DNA of 64,000 nt, taken from assembly GCA_017420755.1 (NCBI GenBank), contig JAFQOG010000050.1:4146-68145 (forward strand), read 5' to 3'. The stretch is from Clostridia bacterium (lineage in GTDB: Bacteria; Bacillota; Clostridia; Oscillospirales; CAG-272). The stretch's first letter is position 1; the number at the start of each line of letters is the position of its first letter. The notes under the pieces are model-generated. The model was not told the origin of the DNA. It was given only the letters and a program-made list of their open reading frames with translations, and did no database searches. Shown here one piece after another: positions 18,567-32,603 of the stretch. Made by a program: the position numbers and the translations under genes.

Positions 18567-21497
18567 TTATTTTACAACAACATATGATGGGTTTTCTGTA
18601 ACTGTGATTGTTACAAAGCCGTCATTGATTTGGAGATTCTTTGTAACTCCGTCAATATCATTGTTATGTGCTGTTGTATGAGTTGCAGTTTTACCATTAA
18701 CTCTTAATTGGAAGTTTTCAACAACTGTTCCGTCAGAGGTTGGGCACCATACTGCATAACCAACTTGGCCCTTGCCATCTGCAAACTCGTAAACCCAAAC
18801 GTCTGGGTTGCCAGAGTCAATTTCCTTAACAAATGTCATATGACCGATTGTTTTGGAAAGCGTGTACATATAGAAGTATCCATCCTTTGGAAGGTATTCT
18901 GTTTCTGTTGTAATACCGGAATAATCTTTATTCGGATCACTGGTATTCTGTTTTTTCACTTCGGTGTTATCATCAACCTTGTAGTACTTAACTACTTCGT
19001 CAGCACCTTCACCAGTAGTAACCTTGTATACCCAGAAGACCTCGTCTGTTGATTTGCCATCTTCGCCGTGCATTGTTGCCTTGTAAATTGGCCAGTTATC
19101 CTCTGTATAAGGAGCATACCAAATACCACATGTACCGTACTTACCGATAGCAGTTGCTTCATTTGAACCAACGTCCTCGCACATGTACATTGTTGCTTTA
19201 TCTACACCGCATGAGGACAATAAAATGTATGCACGAACGAGCCACATACCTTGAATCTCACGAGCTCTTAATACCTTTTCGTAATCGGAGATTATGCCGT
19301 CACCGTTTGCATCCTTAGTATTGTATGCGTGTGCTGATGTCATTGTTTCATATGATTGGTTAGTGTCCCAACCGAACTCGGTTAGCCATACCTCAACATT
19401 AGGATAATATTTATCTCTATATTGAACAAGGGCTGTGAGTGATTGAACAAGTCCAAACTCCTCAGGGCTAACACCAACAATAATTTGTTGACCATTCATT
19501 GTAAAGTACTTACCGAAATATGTATGAACGTTGAACGCATCCATCGCGATGCAGTTATCAGTTCTGTTTGCTCTCATCCAGTAAGCCATTGACATAATAT
19601 ATCTGTCTTGGACACCTGCAAGACCTGCTATAGCAAGCTTGATATCAGGGTCAGCATTTTTTCCGCCAAATGGATATGAGAAACTATTTGGATTATAAAC
19701 GTTTGCAAGAAGTGTTCTTTGGTGACCGTCATATGCTGCAGACTGTAAAGCTGCAAGCTGATATGGAGTTGCACCCGCTGCGTCCTCACCATTTGGCTCG
19801 TTACCAAGCTCAATCCACTCAATGTATCCACGACCTGCCTCTGCGCCGATGCCAGCGTCAGAGTGAGCAATCATGTTTTCAACGAGGTATCCCATCTTAC
19901 TGCTACCATAACGTGCAGCGTATTGATAGATAAGGTCTGCGTATGCAGCGTATGTTGAAGGAAGATATTTTTCTTCCCATGTAGCGATTGTACTTGAGAG
20001 CTTGCCCTCTAAGTCGTCATAAACTCTTGCAGGGCTTGATCCTTCATTCCATTGTAAGCAAGGAATAACTAAGAATCCAGCCTCGCTGTAATCCTTATAT
20101 GCTTGGTCAAAGTTACCAACAACTGTGTTTACAAAGTTAGCTGCCTTACCCGGGAAAGAACCATTTGAATATGACCAACCAACGTTGTGATACTCTCGAA
20201 CTACGTATGAGCATGCAAGCTGTTCAAAAGTACAGTTACCGCCACCACCGGCAACGAAACCGCATTGTCCCATCATTTCTCCGATTGTTGGACGCTTATG
20301 GCTGGAGGTTTCCTTAATTTCCATATCAGGGCTTTCACCTAATGCGTAACCATATACAATTACTTCATTTGGAGATTGTCCGTCAACGAATTCAACTTGT
20401 ACATATCTAACCTCTTTCTTTATTGAAATAGGTAAGAATACAAATGATTCGATTTGTGAAGCTGGAATTTTAACTTCAAAATCCCAATGCTCAGGTGTTA
20501 AGAAGTTAGCAGCATCCTTTGAAGCACGAACTATAACATCATATGTTTTGTCACCATAGAAAAGCATAACTGTATCAACATAGTGAATATATTCAAGGTC
20601 TATGATTGGAGCTAAGCTTGTGCCATAACGCTCGTCAGTAAAGTCCTTCGTATAGTTAGGGAACACGTGACCCTCTTCATACCAGAACTGAGGAACGCTT
20701 GTTGATGGCAAGTCATCATAATCCTCTCTTAATGGGTCACCAACAATATCCTGCTCATCAATAATAGCAGTAAGATTTCTGTTTGTTTCACCAACAATTA
20801 AGTGCTGTGGATTTGTGTAGTCTCTTTCAATGATTTCAATACCACCTGCTCTTACTGTAATAAAATCAGTAGTAAAGTCGTCATTTGATGCAGTAAGTGC
20901 AAAATAGTACTTATTGTCAGCATCAGCCTTCATATTAGGAACAACGATAGTCTTTATCTCACCATCGCCGCTCATTTCGAAGCTATCAAGAACAGTTGCC
21001 TTTGCGTAGTTCTTTTCAGTAATAGCTTTAGTGGAATATCTAAGCTCATAGCTCTTAACGTCACCAATCACATTTACCTTTAATGTGATACTGTTTTCAC
21101 CAAGCTCTGATATACGGAGATATTTAATAATTGGCGCTGCTTTATATTCCAATGTGCTTGCAGAGCCTGTTGGGTTTTCAATCTCTGGTTTATCGCTTGA
21201 ACCTGGTGTGTTTGTGTCACTACCGCCCGGGGTATTTGTGTCACTACCACCTGGAGTATTTGTGTCACTTCCGCCTGGGGTATTTGTGTCACTACCACTT
21301 GGGGTGTTTGTATCACTACCACCTGGTTGATTTGTGTCGTCAGATGTGTTGTCATCATCTGTATCTCCATCGGTTGTTACCTTGTTAGTATCAGTGTCGC
21401 CCTTGCCATTATTAGAGCATCCGCAAGAAACGATCATTGGAACTATCAGGCAAAAGCAAATTGCCAAAACAATCAATGAAAGCCATCTTTTTTTCAT
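18567..21497 (-). CDS. secreted lipoprotein glycoside hydrolase (clan GH-A TIM barrel) with repeat linker, FN3-like and discoidin/CBM-like modules
   Basis: 976 aa with a signal peptide and lipobox (MIVS-C). A linker carries tandem GGSDTNTP repeats. The segment YVQVEFVDGQSPNEVIVYGY looks like the end of an F5/8-type-C domain. IELGNEPNG (acid/base NEP) and VWLTEFGWD (nucleophile) are typical of clan GH-A. Confidence 0.75.
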   Translation of the reverse strand: MKKRWLSLIVLAICFCLIVPMIVSCGCSNNGKGDTDTNKVTTDGDTDDDNTSDDTNQPGGSDTNTPSGSDTNTPGGSDTNTPGGSDTNTPGGSDTNTPGSSDKPEIENPTGSASTLEYKAAPIIKYLRISELGENSITLKVNVIGDVKSYELRYSTKAITEKNYAKATVLDSFEMSGDGEIKTIVVPNMKADADNKYYFALTASNDDFTTDFITVRAGGIEIIERDYTNPQHLIVGETNRNLTAIIDEQDIVGDPLREDYDDLPSTSVPQFWYEEGHVFPNYTKDFTDERYGTSLAPIIDLEYIHYVDTVMLFYGDKTYDVIVRASKDAANFLTPEHWDFEVKIPASQIESFVFLPISIKKEVRYVQVEFVDGQSPNEVIVYGYALGESPDMEIKETSSHKRPTIGEMMGQCGFVAGGGGNCTFEQLACSYVVREYHNVGWSYSNGSFPGKAANFVNTVVGNFDQAYKDYSEAGFLVIPCLQWNEGSSPARVYDDLEGKLSSTIATWEEKYLPSTYAAYADLIYQYAARYGSSKMGYLVENMIAHSDAGIGAEAGRGYIEWIELGNEPNGEDAAGATPYQLAALQSAAYDGHQRTLLANVYNPNSFSYPFGGKNADPDIKLAIAGLAGVQDRYIMSMAYWMRANRTDNCIAMDAFNVHTYFGKYFTMNGQQIIVGVSPEEFGLVQSLTALVQYRDKYYPNVEVWLTEFGWDTNQSYETMTSAHAYNTKDANGDGIISDYEKVLRAREIQGMWLVRAYILLSSCGVDKATMYMCEDVGSNEATAIGKYGTCGIWYAPYTEDNWPIYKATMHGEDGKSTDEVFWVYKVTTGEGADEVVKYYKVDDNTEVKKQNTSDPNKDYSGITTETEYLPKDGYFYMYTLSKTIGHMTFVKEIDSGNPDVWVYEFADGKGQVGYAVWCPTSDGTVVENFQLRVNGKTATHTTAHNNDIDGVTKNLQINDGFVTITVTENPSYVVVK
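21192..21341 (-). repeat. in-frame 24-nt tandem repeats encoding (G/S)GSDTNTP x5-6
   Basis: The DNA shows repeated ggtgtttgtgtcactaccacc-type units. The protein reads TNQPGGSDTNTPSGSDTNTPGGSDTNTPGGSDTNTPGGSDTNTPGSSD. Confidence 0.85.
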
Positions 21498-25660: not shown

Positions 25661-25809
25661 TTTAAATTCTCCTTTATTTTATAACTAAATTTTATCGTAT
25701 TATAGTATATACCATATTTGTGAACAAATCTTGAACAAGGACAAAAATGTTGACATTTTTAGATATAAATGGTAAAATTACTCTTAGATTAACATCATCG
25801 GAGGGTGAA

Positions 25810-26352
25810 ATGAGTATTAGAGAGGAATGCATCCAAGCAGTAAAAGAGCTTTGTGAGGCTGCAAAATTAAAGGCTGGCGATATTTTAGTTATCGGATGCT
25901 CAACCAGTGAGGTTGCCGGAAACAAGATTGGAACAAGCGGCAGTGAGGATATTGCCATCGAGTTATACGATGCTATAACATATGTTTTGGTTCAAAAAAG
26001 AATATATCCTGCCTTTCAATGCTGTGAGCACCTAAACCGTGCAATAGTTATCGAAAGAGAGTGTATGCCCGCTTACTGCGAGGAGGTAAATGTTGTTCCT
26101 CAAAGAAACGCAGGTGGCTCCTTGGCAACCTATGCATATAGCTGCTTTTACGACCCCGTTGTCGTTGAAGAAATAAAGGCAGATGCAGGAATTGATATTG
26201 GCTCTACTCTTATCGGCATGCATCTTAAAAAGGTTGCTGTTCCAGTTCGTTTGTCAATTTCAAAAATAGGTGAGGCAAACATCACCTGTGCGCGAGTTAG
26301 ACCCAAGTTTATCGGAGGTTCTCGTGCCGTTTACAACGACAATCTTCTGTAA
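25810..26352 (+). CDS. UPF0340 / TIGR01440 family protein
   Basis: The GDILVIGCSTSEVAGNKIGTSGS motif is typical of the YwlG-like family. The ATG at 25810 follows GGAGGG. The track start at 25747 adds 21 atypical residues. Confidence 0.7.
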   Translation: MSIREECIQAVKELCEAAKLKAGDILVIGCSTSEVAGNKIGTSGSEDIAIELYDAITYVLVQKRIYPAFQCCEHLNRAIVIERECMPAYCEEVNVVPQRNAGGSLATYAYSCFYDPVVVEEIKADAGIDIGSTLIGMHLKKVAVPVRLSISKIGEANITCARVRPKFIGGSRAVYNDNLL

Positions 26353-26437: not shown

Positions 26438-29400
26438 TTATCTTCCTCTCATTGACTCGAGTTGTTCCTCATCCGTCATTTCCTTAACCTTCTTCTTTCT
26501 CTTCTTAATTACGAAGTTTCTAAAGATAAGGTCAATTATAAAGAGGATCAATGCCAAAATTACCAAAGGAATGTCAATATTGTAGGTTTTGCTTACCGTT
26601 TCTTCAATATCCTTTCCTCTTGTAAAGAAATTGTTTACGCGTTTTGAATTGAAATCAAGATCATTACCCTTATTGTCCTTTGCATAGTTGGTAAAGAAAA
26701 TCTTTGTTTTCAATGCCGCGTCGCCAGATCCCTCGCCATCTTCCAAATCGGAAAGATTTTTGTTCGTTACAAGGCTTGACATTAGAACAAGTCCAGCATC
26801 CTTATCCTCTTGGTCCTCTAAAAGAACATTATATTCTTCTGGAGTTTGTCCAACGATTGCAAAAGCAATTGTATCGCAAAGAGGATCATCGCCGTGAATA
26901 GCGTATTCTATTTCGGGTGGGTCGTTGATGTCCTCATTCCAAGCCGTCTTGATATGCTCAATGCGAACAACATATGTCATATCAGTGTACTCGGTTGGAA
27001 GAACCAAGGTATGGTTATTTCCTGTGCTTTCTGACGCGTAGTATATGCCAACTGTATTCCAAAGAGTAACATCTCCGTCGGTTTGTTGAACATACACGGT
27101 AGCTCTAATCTTTTCCTTGAAATACTGTTTGCCTACCTTTTTATCTCTTTCAGCCAAGTTTGCATAGGTTGTAACATTAACGATGATTTGTTCGTCGTCT
27201 CTCAAGGCTGAATATTCAAGACCTGTTGAGTCAACTCTATTACGAATAGGAGATAAGAGAATATTTTGAACAAGGCGTGAATTTACAATACCATCCGTAT
27301 CGTCAAAGAGAGATCCTGTCCATTTTTTGTTTCCTAAGTCTGTCATAAGAACGCAAACCTTACCAAGTCCATATTCCCACTCTGCATATAGTGGACGCAA
27401 AGCATCTACATAGAACACTCTGCTTGCCTCTGGTCTTAGTGTAGTTGCATAATATCCGTGAATTGTATCATATCCTTCATCGTCGCTAACGCCCTCGAAA
27501 ACTATAGAGTCTTGAGAGTCGGCAATTAGCTCGGCATCGATTTTTTCATTACGGATATCCTTTGAAATTTCATCTGTAATTTCAAAGAGTGTTTCATCAA
27601 GGTCTTTTGCAGCGTCAACCAAGAATGTATCACCCTTACCAGCTGTTGAGATGATGTTCAATTCCTCAAGAGCTGACGAATCAGTTGAGGATAGACCAAT
27701 ACCAATCGCAGTTGTACGAGTACCACTTGTTGCCAAGCGCTTAACAATACCCTCATATCCTGAGCCCTTATCGTTTGGCGCACCGTCTGACATAAATACA
27801 ATTTGCTTAACCTGAATCTTTGTTTTTGTTGTAATTCTGGTCATTAAAGCACTTGCCTCCTGCATTGCAGGTCTATATGCAGTACCATGGCTCTTAATCT
27901 TATCACCTGTAGCCTTATCGTCCTGACCTGGAGCATATGCGCTTTCGCCGCCTGCCTCAAGCAAGAATAAATCCTCTTCAGTAACAAGGTTGCCAGTATA
28001 ATCGCCGTTTGTGTCTTTTTCAGGACGAGTATACTTTACTCTGTACCATTCGTAAGTAACTCCATTCTTGTCTTTAACCTTAGCCATGCTTGAAAGCTTG
28101 GTCAAGGTATCAGAGGAGCTAACTTTAAAATCAGTATCTCTAACAACAATTTCGCCGTTTTCGTCTTCAATAATGTTGCCATCTTCGTCCATGCTTACTG
28201 TGCCATAATGAGCGTAGTAGAAATGGTCAAACTCCTTTTGAACCTTTTCACAAAGCTCTTCTCTGTTTTCCTTGTCACCGAGCATTTCGCCGTCAAGAGC
28301 AACATGATAGCCTTGGTTGAAGGCAACGACTCCAATGTAGTCGTAATCTTGAAGAGTTTTCTTTTCCTTTTCCTCGCCCTCATTTTCAGTGCCTCCGTTT
28401 ATTTCAACATCAGCAGAGTCTTGATCCTCAGGGGCAACCTCACCCATAATTACCTTCTTAACGCTTGAAAGCGCAACCTGATATCTTGTAGGTGTTACAA
28501 ATTTTGCGGTGTTGTAGCACTGAGGACAAATGGTTGGGGATTCGTTATCAACGTCCTCGTATAAGCAATATTTACAAATTAGTGGACTCTTAGTAACCAA
28601 TTCCTTCATAGAGGATGAAAGGTCAACTACAAGTACCATTGCTATAGTTTCGTGCTCCTTGTTGAGGTTTAAGTCAACAGGCAAAAGCTCAGCAATATCA
28701 GGATCAACAACGTATGAGCCAGTCGGCTTATCGTCTTCCTTTGAATCTGCCATTGGCTTTGTTCCACCGGATGATTCAGCAGTATAGATGTTTTCGCCGG
28801 CTGTAAATAACAAGCCTCTACCTACCTCTTCAACAAAGCGTTTGATGTTTGCGCCGGCACCTGTTGGTAGCTCGCTATAATTTACGTCCATAAGTATGAT
28901 TTCGTCATACTCAAGAAGCTTTTGAAGCGTATTTGGGAACGCTCTTGTTTCGCACTTATCAATTTGATATCCTGATTTTTCAGCTAATGCTTCTAAATCG
29001 ATTTGTGAAAGCTGATTTGCACTACCTTGAACAACAAGAATTTTGCCTTGTGCCTTGAATTTATACCAAGCAAAATACATATTGTTTTGATTTAAAACGT
29101 CATCAGGTCTTGAAATTGCCTTAACGTCACAGCTTGGGCATTTGTCAACACCAACAAGCTCAGACTTGGACCAAATAGAAGAACATGCCGGACACTCATA
29201 GCTTACTCTTGGCTTAACTGAAATTTCAGCCTTGATAGCTTGAATGCCTTGCCCTCTGATTTCGTCAAAGGCATCAACATACTTTTGAGGAACGCTAAAT
29301 TCCTTTGTATAGTCATATTGTTGAGCGACAAATGTTAATCTATGAGCAGAAATGCCCTTTGGAACGGTTATGCCATCCTCGGATACCAAGGTGTTACCCG

Positions 29401-30331
29401 TTACAACGTCTTTAAGGCTGATTGTTACATCGCGAATTTTGCTTGTGCTATTAACAGTTACAGTTGCACTATATTTTTTTCCATCTATCGCTTCGCCCTT
29501 TGTTTCCAAGCCGATAACCTGAAGCTCTGAAACAACGTTACTGTTTAAATAGTCAAAATATGCACATTCAAGAGCAACCCCTGAGCCTTCAAATTCTTGA
29601 AGAGCGTAGTAAACATTTCCAACGTTTTCGCGTCCGTCGGACAAAAGAATTACTCTTTTGTTGCTGTTTTCAAATGTTTTGTCATGTCTGTCTTCACCGA
29701 GCATTGTGTCTAAAGCCAAGTTGATGCCCGCTCTTATTGCGCTTCGGTCTCTGACGTCAGAGCTCTTAAGCGCCTCATAATCGTAAAGTATATCTGTTAC
29801 GGAAGGATCAAGTCCACCCGGCTCAATAACTTTGCCGGCGTTTTTCTTTTGATCTTCAGTAAGATTTGGGTCATTCATGCTTTGAGCAACCATTGTTCGG
29901 TTTTTAATAATTCCGTCATCTCCTCCGCCAAATACAACAAGACCAAATTTAGTCTTTGCTTCATCCGGATAGGTGGCTTCCTTTTTCTTTGCAGCCTCCA
30001 TAACATCACGCATATGCTCATTCATTTGAGATTTCATCTGGGCATTACTGTCAGACATATCTACGACAAACATAATTACGTTTCCGTTTGGATCTATCGT
30101 TGTTTTAGTTTCGGTATATGAAATACCTGCAACTACCGTTGATAGAATCAAGATAAGAGCCATGTGTATAATAAACGGAATTAAGTGCTTTGATGATACC
30201 CTACGTTTTTTGTTAAGTCTTAAAAACGGAACGATACCAAGAATCAAAGCTGGAATAGTAATAAGTAGGATCCATGGCTTTTCTGGTGGCCAGTTGAGTC
30301 CTGCGAATAGTGGGGCAAAATTAATATTCAT
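26438..30331 (-). CDS. very large membrane protein with BatA-type N-terminus, two vWA (MIDAS) domains and two Cys4 zinc-ribbon inserts
   Basis: ~1297 aa counted from the ATG at 30331 (the track start at 30355 is TTG).
- N-terminus: a double TM separated by RLNKKRRVSSKH.
- vWA 1: VVDMSDS.
- vWA 2: VVDLSSS...MSDGAPND.
- Zinc ribbons: CPAC..CPSC and CKYC..CPQC.
- C-terminus: a TM helix and a Lys-rich tail. Confidence 0.8.
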   Translation of the reverse strand: MNINFAPLFAGLNWPPEKPWILLITIPALILGIVPFLRLNKKRRVSSKHLIPFIIHMALILILSTVVAGISYTETKTTIDPNGNVIMFVVDMSDSNAQMKSQMNEHMRDVMEAAKKKEATYPDEAKTKFGLVVFGGGDDGIIKNRTMVAQSMNDPNLTEDQKKNAGKVIEPGGLDPSVTDILYDYEALKSSDVRDRSAIRAGINLALDTMLGEDRHDKTFENSNKRVILLSDGRENVGNVYYALQEFEGSGVALECAYFDYLNSNVVSELQVIGLETKGEAIDGKKYSATVTVNSTSKIRDVTISLKDVVTGNTLVSEDGITVPKGISAHRLTFVAQQYDYTKEFSVPQKYVDAFDEIRGQGIQAIKAEISVKPRVSYECPACSSIWSKSELVGVDKCPSCDVKAISRPDDVLNQNNMYFAWYKFKAQGKILVVQGSANQLSQIDLEALAEKSGYQIDKCETRAFPNTLQKLLEYDEIILMDVNYSELPTGAGANIKRFVEEVGRGLLFTAGENIYTAESSGGTKPMADSKEDDKPTGSYVVDPDIAELLPVDLNLNKEHETIAMVLVVDLSSSMKELVTKSPLICKYCLYEDVDNESPTICPQCYNTAKFVTPTRYQVALSSVKKVIMGEVAPEDQDSADVEINGGTENEGEEKEKKTLQDYDYIGVVAFNQGYHVALDGEMLGDKENREELCEKVQKEFDHFYYAHYGTVSMDEDGNIIEDENGEIVVRDTDFKVSSSDTLTKLSSMAKVKDKNGVTYEWYRVKYTRPEKDTNGDYTGNLVTEEDLFLLEAGGESAYAPGQDDKATGDKIKSHGTAYRPAMQEASALMTRITTKTKIQVKQIVFMSDGAPNDKGSGYEGIVKRLATSGTRTTAIGIGLSSTDSSALEELNIISTAGKGDTFLVDAAKDLDETLFEITDEISKDIRNEKIDAELIADSQDSIVFEGVSDDEGYDTIHGYYATTLRPEASRVFYVDALRPLYAEWEYGLGKVCVLMTDLGNKKWTGSLFDDTDGIVNSRLVQNILLSPIRNRVDSTGLEYSALRDDEQIIVNVTTYANLAERDKKVGKQYFKEKIRATVYVQQTDGDVTLWNTVGIYYASESTGNNHTLVLPTEYTDMTYVVRIEHIKTAWNEDINDPPEIEYAIHGDDPLCDTIAFAIVGQTPEEYNVLLEDQEDKDAGLVLMSSLVTNKNLSDLEDGEGSGDAALKTKIFFTNYAKDNKGNDLDFNSKRVNNFFTRGKDIEETVSKTYNIDIPLVILALILFIIDLIFRNFVIKKRKKKVKEMTDEEQLESMRGR

Positions 30332-32603
30332 CTCTATAATATACCCCCCATTCAATTATAAGTAAAACAATTAAAACTAATACAACCCATGGCAAAATAG
30401 GCGTACGTCTTACGTAAACCTGTGCCTCGGTAAGTCCCTTCGCAGGAACTATAAGCTCTTGAAGCTCAGTGTCACCGAGCTTGATTTCGCTATCGATTGC
30501 CTTAGTATATACAGAGTAAACCTCTGTTTTATGCTCTGTTTGCACTATGTTACCAAAATCGTCAACCTTATATGTTGGCTGATAGGTAACCTGCATTTCG
30601 TACAATCCGAATTTTTTAAGGGTGACATTTGGAAGTATTTCTCCATCTGACTTGCCCCATTGATATTCCTGATTTCCTGCGCCTCTGTCAGCGGTGTAAC
30701 GAGTTTGCTCTTCTTCAGGAGTATAGTATATATATTTTATACTTTCAATACCTGATGGAGGATTAAACTGTAGCTTTTCACCGATGAACGGTGTACGGTT
30801 AGGCAATATATCAGGAGTTGAAAAATCAATAAGATTTTCCATCAAGTTAATAAAGTTATCCGGGTCAAAGTGGATAAGAGTATTTTTCAATGTAAGCTCA
30901 AATGTAGTTACAACTACTCTTGTTGTACCAATTGTGCCTGCAATCATAATTGGAGCTGGTACAACCTTGGTAGCACCCTTCTCATTTGTTGCCACATATG
31001 GAACCGTAAATATAACGTCAAATCCGGTTGGTACAGTAAATATCGGGAAGCCTGCCTCGTCTAACGCACTATGAAGTAGCGAATAGCTATTCAATGTGGG
31101 TGGAATTATCGCATCTTCCTTACCATAGTTAACGTTTTCAAGTATTTCCTTTGCATAGTCACCTTGTAAAACAACCTCTTCAACCTTAGTTTTTGGAGCT
31201 TCTACAAGGGTGTCAGTTATAAGCAATCCCTCAACACCTGTTGGAACGCCTGATGCATTAAAATACCAAATCGCACCATCACTTGGTGCCTTTTCCGGTT
31301 TTGTTCCTTCATATATATATAGATTATATCCCGATGTTGGTGCCTTTCTGACATCATCTGCGTGAACAACATTGTCTTGGCTAAATGCAACACCCTGTGA
31401 ACGCAATGCGGTCATCAAAGCAGGCATTTTAGTAAGGTCAACCCTATGGGTTCCCTCTTGGTATTTGAGCTGATTACTTACATATAAAACCTTGAGCTCT
31501 TGTTCCGGAACATAATATAGATATGACTCATCGTCGTAATGAATAATATCCCTATCTGTTTCAACATATACTCTTGCTCTTTCGTATTCTTGAATCTTGA
31601 TAGGACCGAATGTAACAGTTGTTGTTCTCGGTGTTCCATCATTACTGTTTGTGCTAAGAGTAACCTTTTTTCTGTCCATCTCAACGCCATCAAGCTCAAA
31701 AACAACATCAGCCATATATGACTGATTTTTTCCTTGAGCATCAATCGTTACATCGAATGAATAGCTAATATCGGTTTTCTTTTCTTTGAAGCCAACAATA
31801 CCAAGGTTTCTATCGTTTTCGGGGTCGTCGCAAGAAATTATCTCTATATTTGAGTTTTCATTAAGAACAAAGCCGCTTCTTTCTCTATCGGTCAAAAGAT
31901 AAATTTTAGCCTCAGGGCTCGTGTCAATCGCCTCTGCTGCCAAAGCAAGTGCGCTGTTCAAATCTGTCGCTCTATTCGAGCATGATTTTTCCTCTAATAC
32001 ACCTATCAAGTCTTGAACTCTTGCTGGGTCATAAATATAGGGAACCTCTGTTTCATCTCCCTCCTCAATTCTTGGCTGTGATTTAGTCATAAGCTGAGGG
32101 GAGTCTCCCGCGAAAATGATACAAATACCATTTTGTGGACCTGTATCTTGTGCTAATTCCTCGAGTCTGTTAAGAGCATACTGATAGCGTGTTGCCATCG
32201 TCTCCTTTTTAGCACCCGTGGCGTTTGTAACATACGCTTCTCTTTCAAGTGTCATACTTGCAGAGGCGTCAATTACTATGATTTTATCATTATTTTGATA
32301 TTCGTCCTCTACTCTAACATCCATTAAAGCAAAGGTCGCTACCGTAACAGCTAAAAGCTGTACTATAAGTAAAAGGGACATTATAAAGTTTATAGGAATA
32401 CGGCGCTTCATATATTTGAGGCTTCGTTTCCAAATAAACGTACTGGATACTGTCTTAGGTACGTATTTCGATTTTATCAAATATATCAAAATGACGATAG
32501 GTATCGCAATAAGACCTAAAAGGCCCAGCAATCCAAATGTCCATCCGTGGCCAGTATCAACAATTCGTTGATTACTGAACTGTTCAAGAATGTTTGATAT
32601 CAT
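30321..32603 (-). CDS. BatA-like membrane protein with vWA domain
   Basis: 760 aa with an aerotolerance-regulator-type N-terminal double TM (LIAIPIVILIYLIKSKY...VSSTFIWKRS). The MIDAS motif is IVIDASASM, and there is a C-terminal TM helix. The start forms an ATGA overlap with the DUF58 stop. Confidence 0.8.
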   Translation of the reverse strand: MISNILEQFSNQRIVDTGHGWTFGLLGLLGLIAIPIVILIYLIKSKYVPKTVSSTFIWKRSLKYMKRRIPINFIMSLLLIVQLLAVTVATFALMDVRVEDEYQNNDKIIVIDASASMTLEREAYVTNATGAKKETMATRYQYALNRLEELAQDTGPQNGICIIFAGDSPQLMTKSQPRIEEGDETEVPYIYDPARVQDLIGVLEEKSCSNRATDLNSALALAAEAIDTSPEAKIYLLTDRERSGFVLNENSNIEIISCDDPENDRNLGIVGFKEKKTDISYSFDVTIDAQGKNQSYMADVVFELDGVEMDRKKVTLSTNSNDGTPRTTTVTFGPIKIQEYERARVYVETDRDIIHYDDESYLYYVPEQELKVLYVSNQLKYQEGTHRVDLTKMPALMTALRSQGVAFSQDNVVHADDVRKAPTSGYNLYIYEGTKPEKAPSDGAIWYFNASGVPTGVEGLLITDTLVEAPKTKVEEVVLQGDYAKEILENVNYGKEDAIIPPTLNSYSLLHSALDEAGFPIFTVPTGFDVIFTVPYVATNEKGATKVVPAPIMIAGTIGTTRVVVTTFELTLKNTLIHFDPDNFINLMENLIDFSTPDILPNRTPFIGEKLQFNPPSGIESIKYIYYTPEEEQTRYTADRGAGNQEYQWGKSDGEILPNVTLKKFGLYEMQVTYQPTYKVDDFGNIVQTEHKTEVYSVYTKAIDSEIKLGDTELQELIVPAKGLTEAQVYVRRTPILPWVVLVLIVLLIIEWGVYYRDEY

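Follow-up and report, generated by a model that had tools for sequence, protein, structure and literature searches.

The locus examined here raises two linked questions: whether zinc-ribbon-like Cys4 modules occur in the part of a bacterial membrane protein that faces away from the cytoplasm, and how cytoplasmic proteins encoded beside it could then act on its von Willebrand factor A (vWA) domains. The gene lies on a 64,000-nucleotide stretch of DNA (the window) from a Clostridia bacterium (contig JAFQOG010000050.1 of assembly GCA_017420755.1) and encodes a 1297-residue protein, hereafter the target, with two vWA domains, three transmembrane (TM) helices and two Cys4 ribbons, at the end of a cluster that also encodes a MoxR-type ATPase and a DUF58 protein. 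NCBI already holds an identical protein as 'MAG: VWA domain-containing protein [Clostridia bacterium]' (P0001 among our homologues). We consider it probable that the target is the largest subunit of a Bat-like, MoxR/DUF58-associated envelope complex, in which the ribbons are structural zinc modules and coupling to the cytoplasm runs through the basic loop and tail of the target and through DUF58. The ribbons are lineage-specific accessory insertions and not features of the family. What is new is the form of the protein: a ribbon-decorated, double-vWA, split-GATase1-like version of the Bat-like TM-vWA proteins known from MoxR-DUF58 clusters.

Membrane topology and the nature of the Cys4 inserts

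Hydropathy analysis identified three hydrophobic segments in the target (residues 18-40, 45-73 and 1246-1277). Lys and Arg residues are concentrated in the loop between the first two segments (six) and in the C-terminal tail (nine), while the N-terminus and both flanks of the ectodomain are poor in them. The same bias runs through the family: in 159 representatives, defined as family members with the same layout of two N-terminal helices and one C-terminal helix, the mean Lys plus Arg count was 6.2 in the loop and 5.7 in the tail, against 0.3, 0.8 and 1.35 in the segments on the other side, and the inside count exceeded the outside count in 158 of the 159. This layout has been mapped experimentally in Borrelia BB0173, where TM helices at residues 7-25, 57-77 and 310-328 surround a vWA domain, and glycosylation scanning placed the N-terminus outside, the C-terminus inside and the vWA domain across the membrane (PMC5700661). 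The positive-inside bias and the BB0173 mapping thus support the initial annotation, made from the sequence alone, which had placed the loop and tail in the cytoplasm and about 1200 residues (~1170 by our count) outside. The amino-acid composition of the ectodomain did not discriminate it from the cytoplasmic proteins of the window. The outward-facing vWA domain predicted here is the expected topology and is not new for Bat-like proteins; a periplasmic Bat complex had already been proposed by Tang et al. (as cited in PMC3557215). What is unusual is confined to the presence of Cys4 modules in the outer region, which the initial annotation had called unusual as well. Even the oddity of the modules is softened, because exported proteins of anaerobic Firmicutes commonly contain Cys and seldom show the even bias typical of disulfides, which was found in only 2 of 20 (PMC2823432).

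The target has 13 Cys residues, eight of which form two CxxC-x12-14-CxxC motifs (ribbon 1, 380/383 and 398/401; ribbon 2, 586/589 and 602/605). When 13 Cys were placed at random in 1297 positions, at least one Cys4 motif arose in 37 of 200,000 trials and two motifs in 2 of 200,000; the pair is real and not due to chance. Ribbon 2 had been described as following directly upon the start of the second vWA domain; its placement there holds, with an exact offset of 12 residues past S574. In a 49-sequence alignment, ribbon 1 occurs only in the eight closest homologues (at least 59% identity), the others showing a clean gap of 34-36 residues, and ribbon 2 occurs in about 20. All four Cys are kept wherever ribbon 1 exists. 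Among 19 copies of ribbon 2, which are 22-64% identical to that of the target, invariance is limited to the four Cys and a Ser immediately before them. The protein's other five Cys, outside the ribbons, are exchanged freely for Ala, Ile, Val or Thr in homologues. Conservation of the Cys residues, a check suggested at the outset, thus holds without exception where an insert exists, although the insert itself is missing from most homologues.

Several comparisons speak to the fold of the inserts. In a PDB sequence search, ribbon 1 and the Cys4 ribbon of ribosomal protein eL43 aligned in register (E 0.0067), and residues 376-457, which include ribbon 1, matched the adenylate-kinase model NF001385 (E 1.9e-5); the same PDB search with ribbon 2 gave chance-level matches only. 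In the full AlphaFold2 (AF2) model, assignment with DSSP places short strands or bridges on either side of each knuckle in both ribbons. Ribbon 2 modelled alone (39 residues) reached a predicted local distance difference test score (pLDDT) of 73, and its listed Foldseek neighbours were overwhelmingly Cys-rich zinc or iron modules, with TM-scores by query length (TMq) of 0.45-0.68 and root mean square deviations of ~2-4 Å. Named among them were ribosomal zinc ribbons, MCM, NZF, RING, Rpb12, eIF2-gamma and rubrerythrin, the last with the highest TMq (0.68). The two CxxC knuckles with their invariant Cys, the variable remainder, the likeness to eL43 and the zinc-module neighbours agree with the first description of the motifs as zinc ribbons, and indirectly support a clustering of the four thiols. 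A literature search on extracytoplasmic zinc ribbons found no direct precedent.

Domain architecture and distribution of the ribbons

The AF2 model spans residues 70-1250 with a mean pLDDT of 81. Taken with the membrane segments, it gives the following order of elements: TM hairpin, vWA1, CARDB-like sandwich, first half of a GATase1-like domain, vWA2, second half of the GATase1-like domain, beta-sandwich, low-confidence linker, TM helix and tail (Table 1). Pfam scans covered the target and selected members of the 49-sequence alignment. vWA2 matched PF00092 at 33.9 bits (cut-off 23.8), while vWA1 fell just under the cut-off for VWA_2 (PF13519; 26.1 against 27 bits), where homologues scored 41-70 bits. 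Both MIDAS motifs (metal-ion-dependent adhesion sites) are complete and invariant in the 49 homologues: D91, S93, S95, S/T197 (Ser in the target) and D232 in vWA1, and D570, S572, S574, T817 and D849 in vWA2. The first Asp of the vWA1 site, initially placed near residue 96, is residue 91 when counted from the ATG start. In addition to ribbon 2, vWA2 holds a disordered acidic loop (residues 633-657) and a beta-rich insert found family-wide (residues ~708-814). The CARDB-like label of the sandwich comes from a Foldseek match to 3idu (E 2.2e-4; TM-score by target length 0.65), with no Pfam CARDB match in the target or the scanned homologues; N416 and N417 of its DD.L.QNN motif are invariant in the alignment. 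PF07090 scored 20.8 bits in the target, under the cut-off of 27, and passed it in two homologues (P0030, 39.5 bits; P0042, 34.9 bits). The match is split, with profile positions ~46-146 before vWA2 (in homologue P0016) and ~160-242 after it, which suggests that vWA2 is nested inside a GATase1-like fold across the whole family. A literature search on PF07090/DUF1355 returned nothing informative.

A profile of 44 homologues searched against 1.8 billion proteins retrieved 2822 representative clusters at E<=1e-30, most of them of 850-1000 residues; the target is among the longest members because of its inserts. Among the 199 sequences of the family that were examined, no more than 23 carry a ribbon at any site, and these belong to one small clade. 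In a neighbour-joining tree the ribbon-bearing homologues form a single clade with a ribbon-less subgroup nested within it, which implies a history of gains plus a loss. Ribbon 2 is common to the clade, with ribbon 1 limited to the eight closest relatives. Additional ribbons lie at two further sites in homologues, P0024 (residue 162) and P0067 (residue 137) among them. The third, in sister-clade sequences (P0009-P0012, P0015, P0024, P0025 and P0028), corresponds to residues 517-540 of the target, where the target has an acidic disordered loop; the fourth is a vWA1 loop of P0024, immediately ahead of the loop with the S/T197 MIDAS residue. At three of the sites the ribbons have a signature in common (Y-x-C-x2-C-x3-[YFW]-x-K-x-E-L...C-P-x2-C), which in our reading of the sequences suggests that a single module was copied from loop to loop within the family. 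The presence of ribbons at four loop sites, in one clade only and with a ribbon-less subgroup inside it, marks them as accessory; they therefore cannot decide the orientation of Bat proteins in general, for which the initial annotation had called an inverted topology informative.

The gene, its cluster and the rest of the window

The predicted open reading frame (ORF) extends from 30355 to 26438 on the reverse strand, with a TTG start and 1305 residues. We dropped this start for the ATG at 30331, which gives 1297 residues, because the N-terminus M[NS]IN... is the same in 40 homologues and the upstream gene stops at 30321; the ATG overlaps that gene by 11 nucleotides. The length is thus close to the ~1300 residues first given, and all the motifs quoted then (RLNKKRR, VVDMSDS, CPACSSIW...CPSCDV, VVDLSSSMKEL, CKYC...CPQC, IVFMSDGAPND and KKRKKKVKE) are present in the translation. 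Outside the vWA cores, conservation is among the highest in the loop (PFLRLNKKRRxSSKHLIPFIIH) and at the very C-terminus (M-[TS]-D-E-E-Q-x-[EA]-S-M-R-G-R); the C-terminal motif, found in 55 of 199 family sequences, is a subfamily marker. The N-terminus had been called BatA-type, which is correct for the layout (TM helix, basic loop, TM helix, vWA) but not as a Pfam assignment: BatA (PF07584) did not match the target at E<=10, and the distant homologue P0049 alone gave 16.5 bits.

Table 1. Positions in the window of the target gene, its parts and the other genes of the cluster
Feature	Position	Strand	Basis
Whole gene, 1297-residue double-vWA membrane protein	26438..30331	(-)	Single long ORF; start set by homologue N-termini
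TM helix 1, ~residues 20-38	30218..30274	(-)	Hydropathy; kept in homologues
Basic loop RLNKKRRVSSKH, residues 39-50, predicted cytoplasmic	30182..30217	(-)	Alignment, Lys/Arg counts
TM helix 2, ~residues 51-73	30113..30181	(-)	Hydropathy; homologues
vWA domain 1, ~residues 84-262	29546..30082	(-)	Pfam VWA_2, BatB 3ibs and 4jdu profile matches, AF2 secondary structure
CARDB-like beta-sandwich, ~residues 268-427, invariant DD.L.QNN at end	29051..29530	(-)	AF2 strands, Foldseek
Ribbon 1, residues 376-409, Cys 380/383/398/401, before last strand of beta-sandwich	29105..29206	(-)	Sequence, AF2 pLDDT ~72-78
GATase1-like (PF07090 / STM1381-like) alpha/beta domain, N-terminal half, ~residues 428-515	28787..29050	(-)	PDB profile matches 2gk3, 3soz
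Acidic disordered loop, residues 520-537, pLDDT <50	28721..28774	(-)	AF2
vWA domain 2, ~residues 562-925	27557..28648	(-)	Pfam VWA, AF2, MIDAS invariance
Ribbon 2, residues 580-612, Cys 586/589/602/605, between DxSxS loop and helix alpha-1 of vWA2	28496..28594	(-)	Sequence, AF2 pLDDT 81-85
GATase1-like domain, C-terminal half, ~residues 940-1030	27242..27514	(-)	PF07090 profile positions 161-242
C-terminal beta-sandwich region, ~residues 1039-1160	26852..27217	(-)	AF2 strands; weak Big_1 and Filamin matches in homologues
TM helix 3, ~residues 1252-1273	26513..26578	(-)	Hydropathy; homologues
Predicted cytoplasmic tail, KKRKKKVKE then terminal motif MTDEEQLESMRGR	26441..26512	(-)	Conserved in subfamily
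Upstream partner, 760 residues, 2+1 TM layout, one vWA (DASAS at residue 112)	30321..32603	(-)	Sequence, hydropathy, Pfam
DUF58 protein, 299 residues, no TM segment	32600..33499	(-)	Pfam DUF58 112 bits, hydropathy
MoxR-type AAA+ ATPase (AAA_3, AAA_lid_2), no TM segment	33514..34914	(-)	AAA_3 208 bits
Giant acidic repeat protein, 2465 residues, N-terminal TM helices	34948..42345	(-)	ORF, hydropathy

Five tightly packed genes that run in one direction, with the target gene in last place, encode a giant acidic TM protein, MoxR, DUF58, a BatA-like vWA protein and the target itself. This order, followed by DUF436 and iPGM, is kept around homologues only 31% and 43% identical, and the cluster is of the Bat-like, MoxR-proper type. 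The 760-residue BatA-like neighbour scored 24.9 bits with Pfam BatA, near the threshold of 25.9, and BLASTP between it and the target detected no paralogy. The DUF58 protein has a MIDAS-like D88-x-S-x-S, a Thr at about residue 161 and an Asp at about residue 185, with weak vWA and ViaA matches. It is on these grounds, and for want of a TM segment, the likely cytoplasmic vWA adaptor of MoxR, a type of partner that MoxR ATPases usually employ. The puzzle first posed, of how MoxR and DUF58 could reach vWA domains outside the membrane, probably falls away with this motif, these matches and the precedent of the Mxa system (see below). In distant relatives, the first protein of the cluster shares the N-terminal TM module of the giant protein, its first ~190 residues (33% identity, E 6e-28). 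The giant protein, which gave no meaningful Pfam match, would probably make a fifth subunit. In a search against the PADLOC defence models, the target, the 760-residue protein and DUF58 had no match, and MoxR and the coiled-coil giant had weak generic ones.

Some features of these genes are recorded in their own right. After its TM helices the giant protein consists of ~2200 residues of Asp/Glu/Lys-rich acidic repeats, with AT skew down to -0.44, and in distant relatives it has 1053 or at least 1604 residues. The MoxR ATPase has an Ala/Pro/Lys-rich N-terminal extension of ~100 residues with AEAPKPAEA-type repeats, and its C-terminal tail is rich in Lys; in one related locus (L004) the homologue has 391 residues, so the length of the extension varies. 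The DUF436 gene (25747-26352, forward strand) is convergent to the target, and every relative examined has it directly downstream of the cluster, which may be simple synteny and not a functional link. Elsewhere in the window, a 976-residue ORF (18567-21497, reverse strand) has no Pfam match, and unannotated genes of 901 and 1121 residues occupy the syntenic position between Amidase_6 and HrcA in two related loci (L001 and L003). The segment 13514-18341 (reverse strand), with HrcA identified by Pfam followed by ORFs of 175, 611 and 378 residues, the last with DnaJ-type CxxCxGxG motifs, looks like an hrcA-grpE-dnaK-dnaJ heat-shock operon.

Proposed mechanism, rival explanations and known systems

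In the explanation that we favour, the target would be anchored by its N-terminal helical hairpin and single C-terminal helix, with ~1170 residues outside the membrane. Because both MIDAS sites are complete, both vWA domains most likely use a divalent cation to bind acidic ligands that partner proteins or components of the envelope carry. The ribbons would be small zinc-ribbon modules that one clade has recently added to surface loops. They most likely serve as structural Zn(Cys)4 staples to stiffen these exposed loops, and would be tolerable outside the cell because the habitat is presumably anoxic. Judging from sequence order alone, which places it at the junction of MIDAS loop 1 and helix alpha-1, ribbon 2 probably contributes to or caps the ligand face of vWA2. 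Coupling to the cytoplasm would most likely run through the conserved basic loop and the C-terminal tail (MTDEEQxESMRGR), on which the MoxR-DUF58 pair could dock. DUF58 would act as the vWA-type adaptor of a MoxR hexamer, and the membrane anchors could transmit ATP-driven remodelling, in a loose parallel to inside-out signalling by integrins.

Several points weigh against this explanation. The topology of BB0173 was mapped in eukaryotic microsomes (PMC5700661), and bat mutants of Leptospira had no phenotype (PMC3557215). The Foldseek E-values for the 39-residue model of ribbon 2 were not significant (best 0.27). Cys4 zinc ribbons are, moreover, overwhelmingly cytoplasmic, and the closest solved relatives of the GATase1-like domain, 2gk3 and 3soz, are labelled 'cytoplasmic protein'. 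These last two points, along with the lack of TM segments in MoxR and DUF58, would suit an inverted topology, in which the 1170-residue region with its vWA domains and ribbons is cytoplasmic and in direct contact with MoxR and DUF58. Such an orientation would, however, put the six basic residues of the loop and the nine of the tail outside, contrary to the bias in 158 of 159 members, and would conflict with the experimental topology of BB0173; the CARDB-like and Ig-like sandwiches suit a surface protein, and most family members function without any ribbon. We regard an inverted topology as the most improbable of the explanations considered. If the region is outside, as we prefer, its inserts might instead, as the initial annotation had allowed, be loop staples held by two disulfide bonds rather than metal sites. 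The predicted extracytoplasmic location, from the Lys/Arg bias and BB0173 (PMC5700661), would accommodate this, as would Cys that are even in number and strictly conserved. It is nevertheless unlikely, given that the spacing and the CPxC knuckles fit classical zinc ribbons, that ribbon 1 aligns with eL43, that the ribbon 2 model has metal-bound modules as its structural neighbours and that an even-Cys bias was seen in only 2 of 20 anaerobic Firmicutes (PMC2823432); the sample label XIEF21 also hints, as far as a label alone can, at an anoxic ruminant-gut origin.

In another rival reading the ribbons are sensors: a Zn- or Fe-(Cys)4 centre by the vWA2 MIDAS loop would switch ligand binding in response to oxidant or metal when the anaerobe encounters oxygen. 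Ribbon 2 is indeed inserted straight after DxSxS, the extra ribbon of P0024 lies just before the S/T197 MIDAS loop of vWA1, and a rubrerythrin chain, presumably through its rubredoxin-like Cys4 domain, gave the highest TMq; in addition, aerotolerance is the phenotype for which the Bat operon was named, and a role in sensing has been put forward (PMC3557215). Yet the ribbons are dispensable, being absent from most of the family and from the nested subgroup, neither the sandwich loop nor the linker loop, two of the four sites, is assigned to a loop that bears MIDAS residues, the cluster has no redox-partner genes and published Bat phenotypes are weak or absent (PMC3557215), so that we find a sensor quite unlikely. 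A bolder form of the idea, which we hold to be very unlikely, is that a small clade of gut Clostridia repeatedly grafted a portable Cys4 module into at least four surface loops, two of them by MIDAS sites, as extracellular metal-thiolate switches by which oxidant or metal controls vWA binding. If true, these switches would be a direct oxygen-sensing element for Bat-type 'aerotolerance' systems and one of few documented examples of Zn/Fe(Cys)4 sites that function at the surface of a bacterium.

Should the ribbons be purely structural, as we think probable, the result is a modest refinement of annotation. Bat-like MoxR/DUF58/vWA clusters are widespread. The target does not solve their mechanism, but it offers three handles. 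Natural orthologues with and without ribbons could be used to ask if Cys4 metal sites work outside the membrane of an anaerobe, the MIDAS-loop insert marks the probable ligand face of vWA2, and the conserved cytoplasmic loop and C-terminal tail are a candidate link between MoxR/DUF58 and the outward vWA domains.

The closest known systems are the BatA/BatB proteins of Bacteroides and BB0173 of Borrelia, which share with the target cluster the gene order MoxR, DUF58 and TM-vWA proteins and with the target itself the two N-terminal TM helices around a basic loop and the C-terminal TM helix. The vWA1 domain of the target matches the crystal structure of BatB (3ibs) as well as structure 4jdu, and its predicted outward orientation is that mapped for the vWA domain of BB0173. 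The target is, however, four times longer than these proteins and differs from them in having two vWA domains, a CARDB-like sandwich, a split GATase1-like domain, a C-terminal sandwich and Cys4 ribbons, and its cluster, in contrast to Bat operons, lacks tetratricopeptide-repeat genes of the BatC/BatD/BatE type and has a giant acidic TM protein at its head. The founding MoxR system, the MxaR-MxaS-MxaA-MxaC-MxaK-MxaL accessory proteins of methanol dehydrogenase, likewise combines MoxR, DUF58 and vWA proteins (MxaS, MxaC and MxaL). There too a cytoplasmic ATPase serves a target outside the cytoplasm: the MoxR, DUF58 and TM-vWA proteins insert Ca2+ into an enzyme of the periplasm (PMC12276312). 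Unlike that system, the target has no methanol dehydrogenase or other evident client enzyme nearby, a different domain architecture and a Gram-positive-type anaerobe as its host.

Extracellular MIDAS-type vWA domains, as predicted for the target, are also found in mussel PTMP1 and in the I-domains of integrins and complement. PTMP1, with a tandem double vWA like that of the target, is its best PDB match by both sequence and structure, although these proteins are eukaryotic, secreted and ~10% identical, and have no membrane hairpin, ATPase partner or ribbons. Classical Cys4 ribbons (eL43/eL40, Rpb12, MCM, the rubredoxin-like domain of rubrerythrin and the adenylate-kinase model region) have the same two CxxC knuckles 12-14 residues apart and the same flanking short strands. 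They are cytoplasmic or nuclear, whereas those of the target sit within loops of domains whose predicted place is outside the membrane and, again in contrast to the classical ribbons, recur at four loop positions within its protein family.

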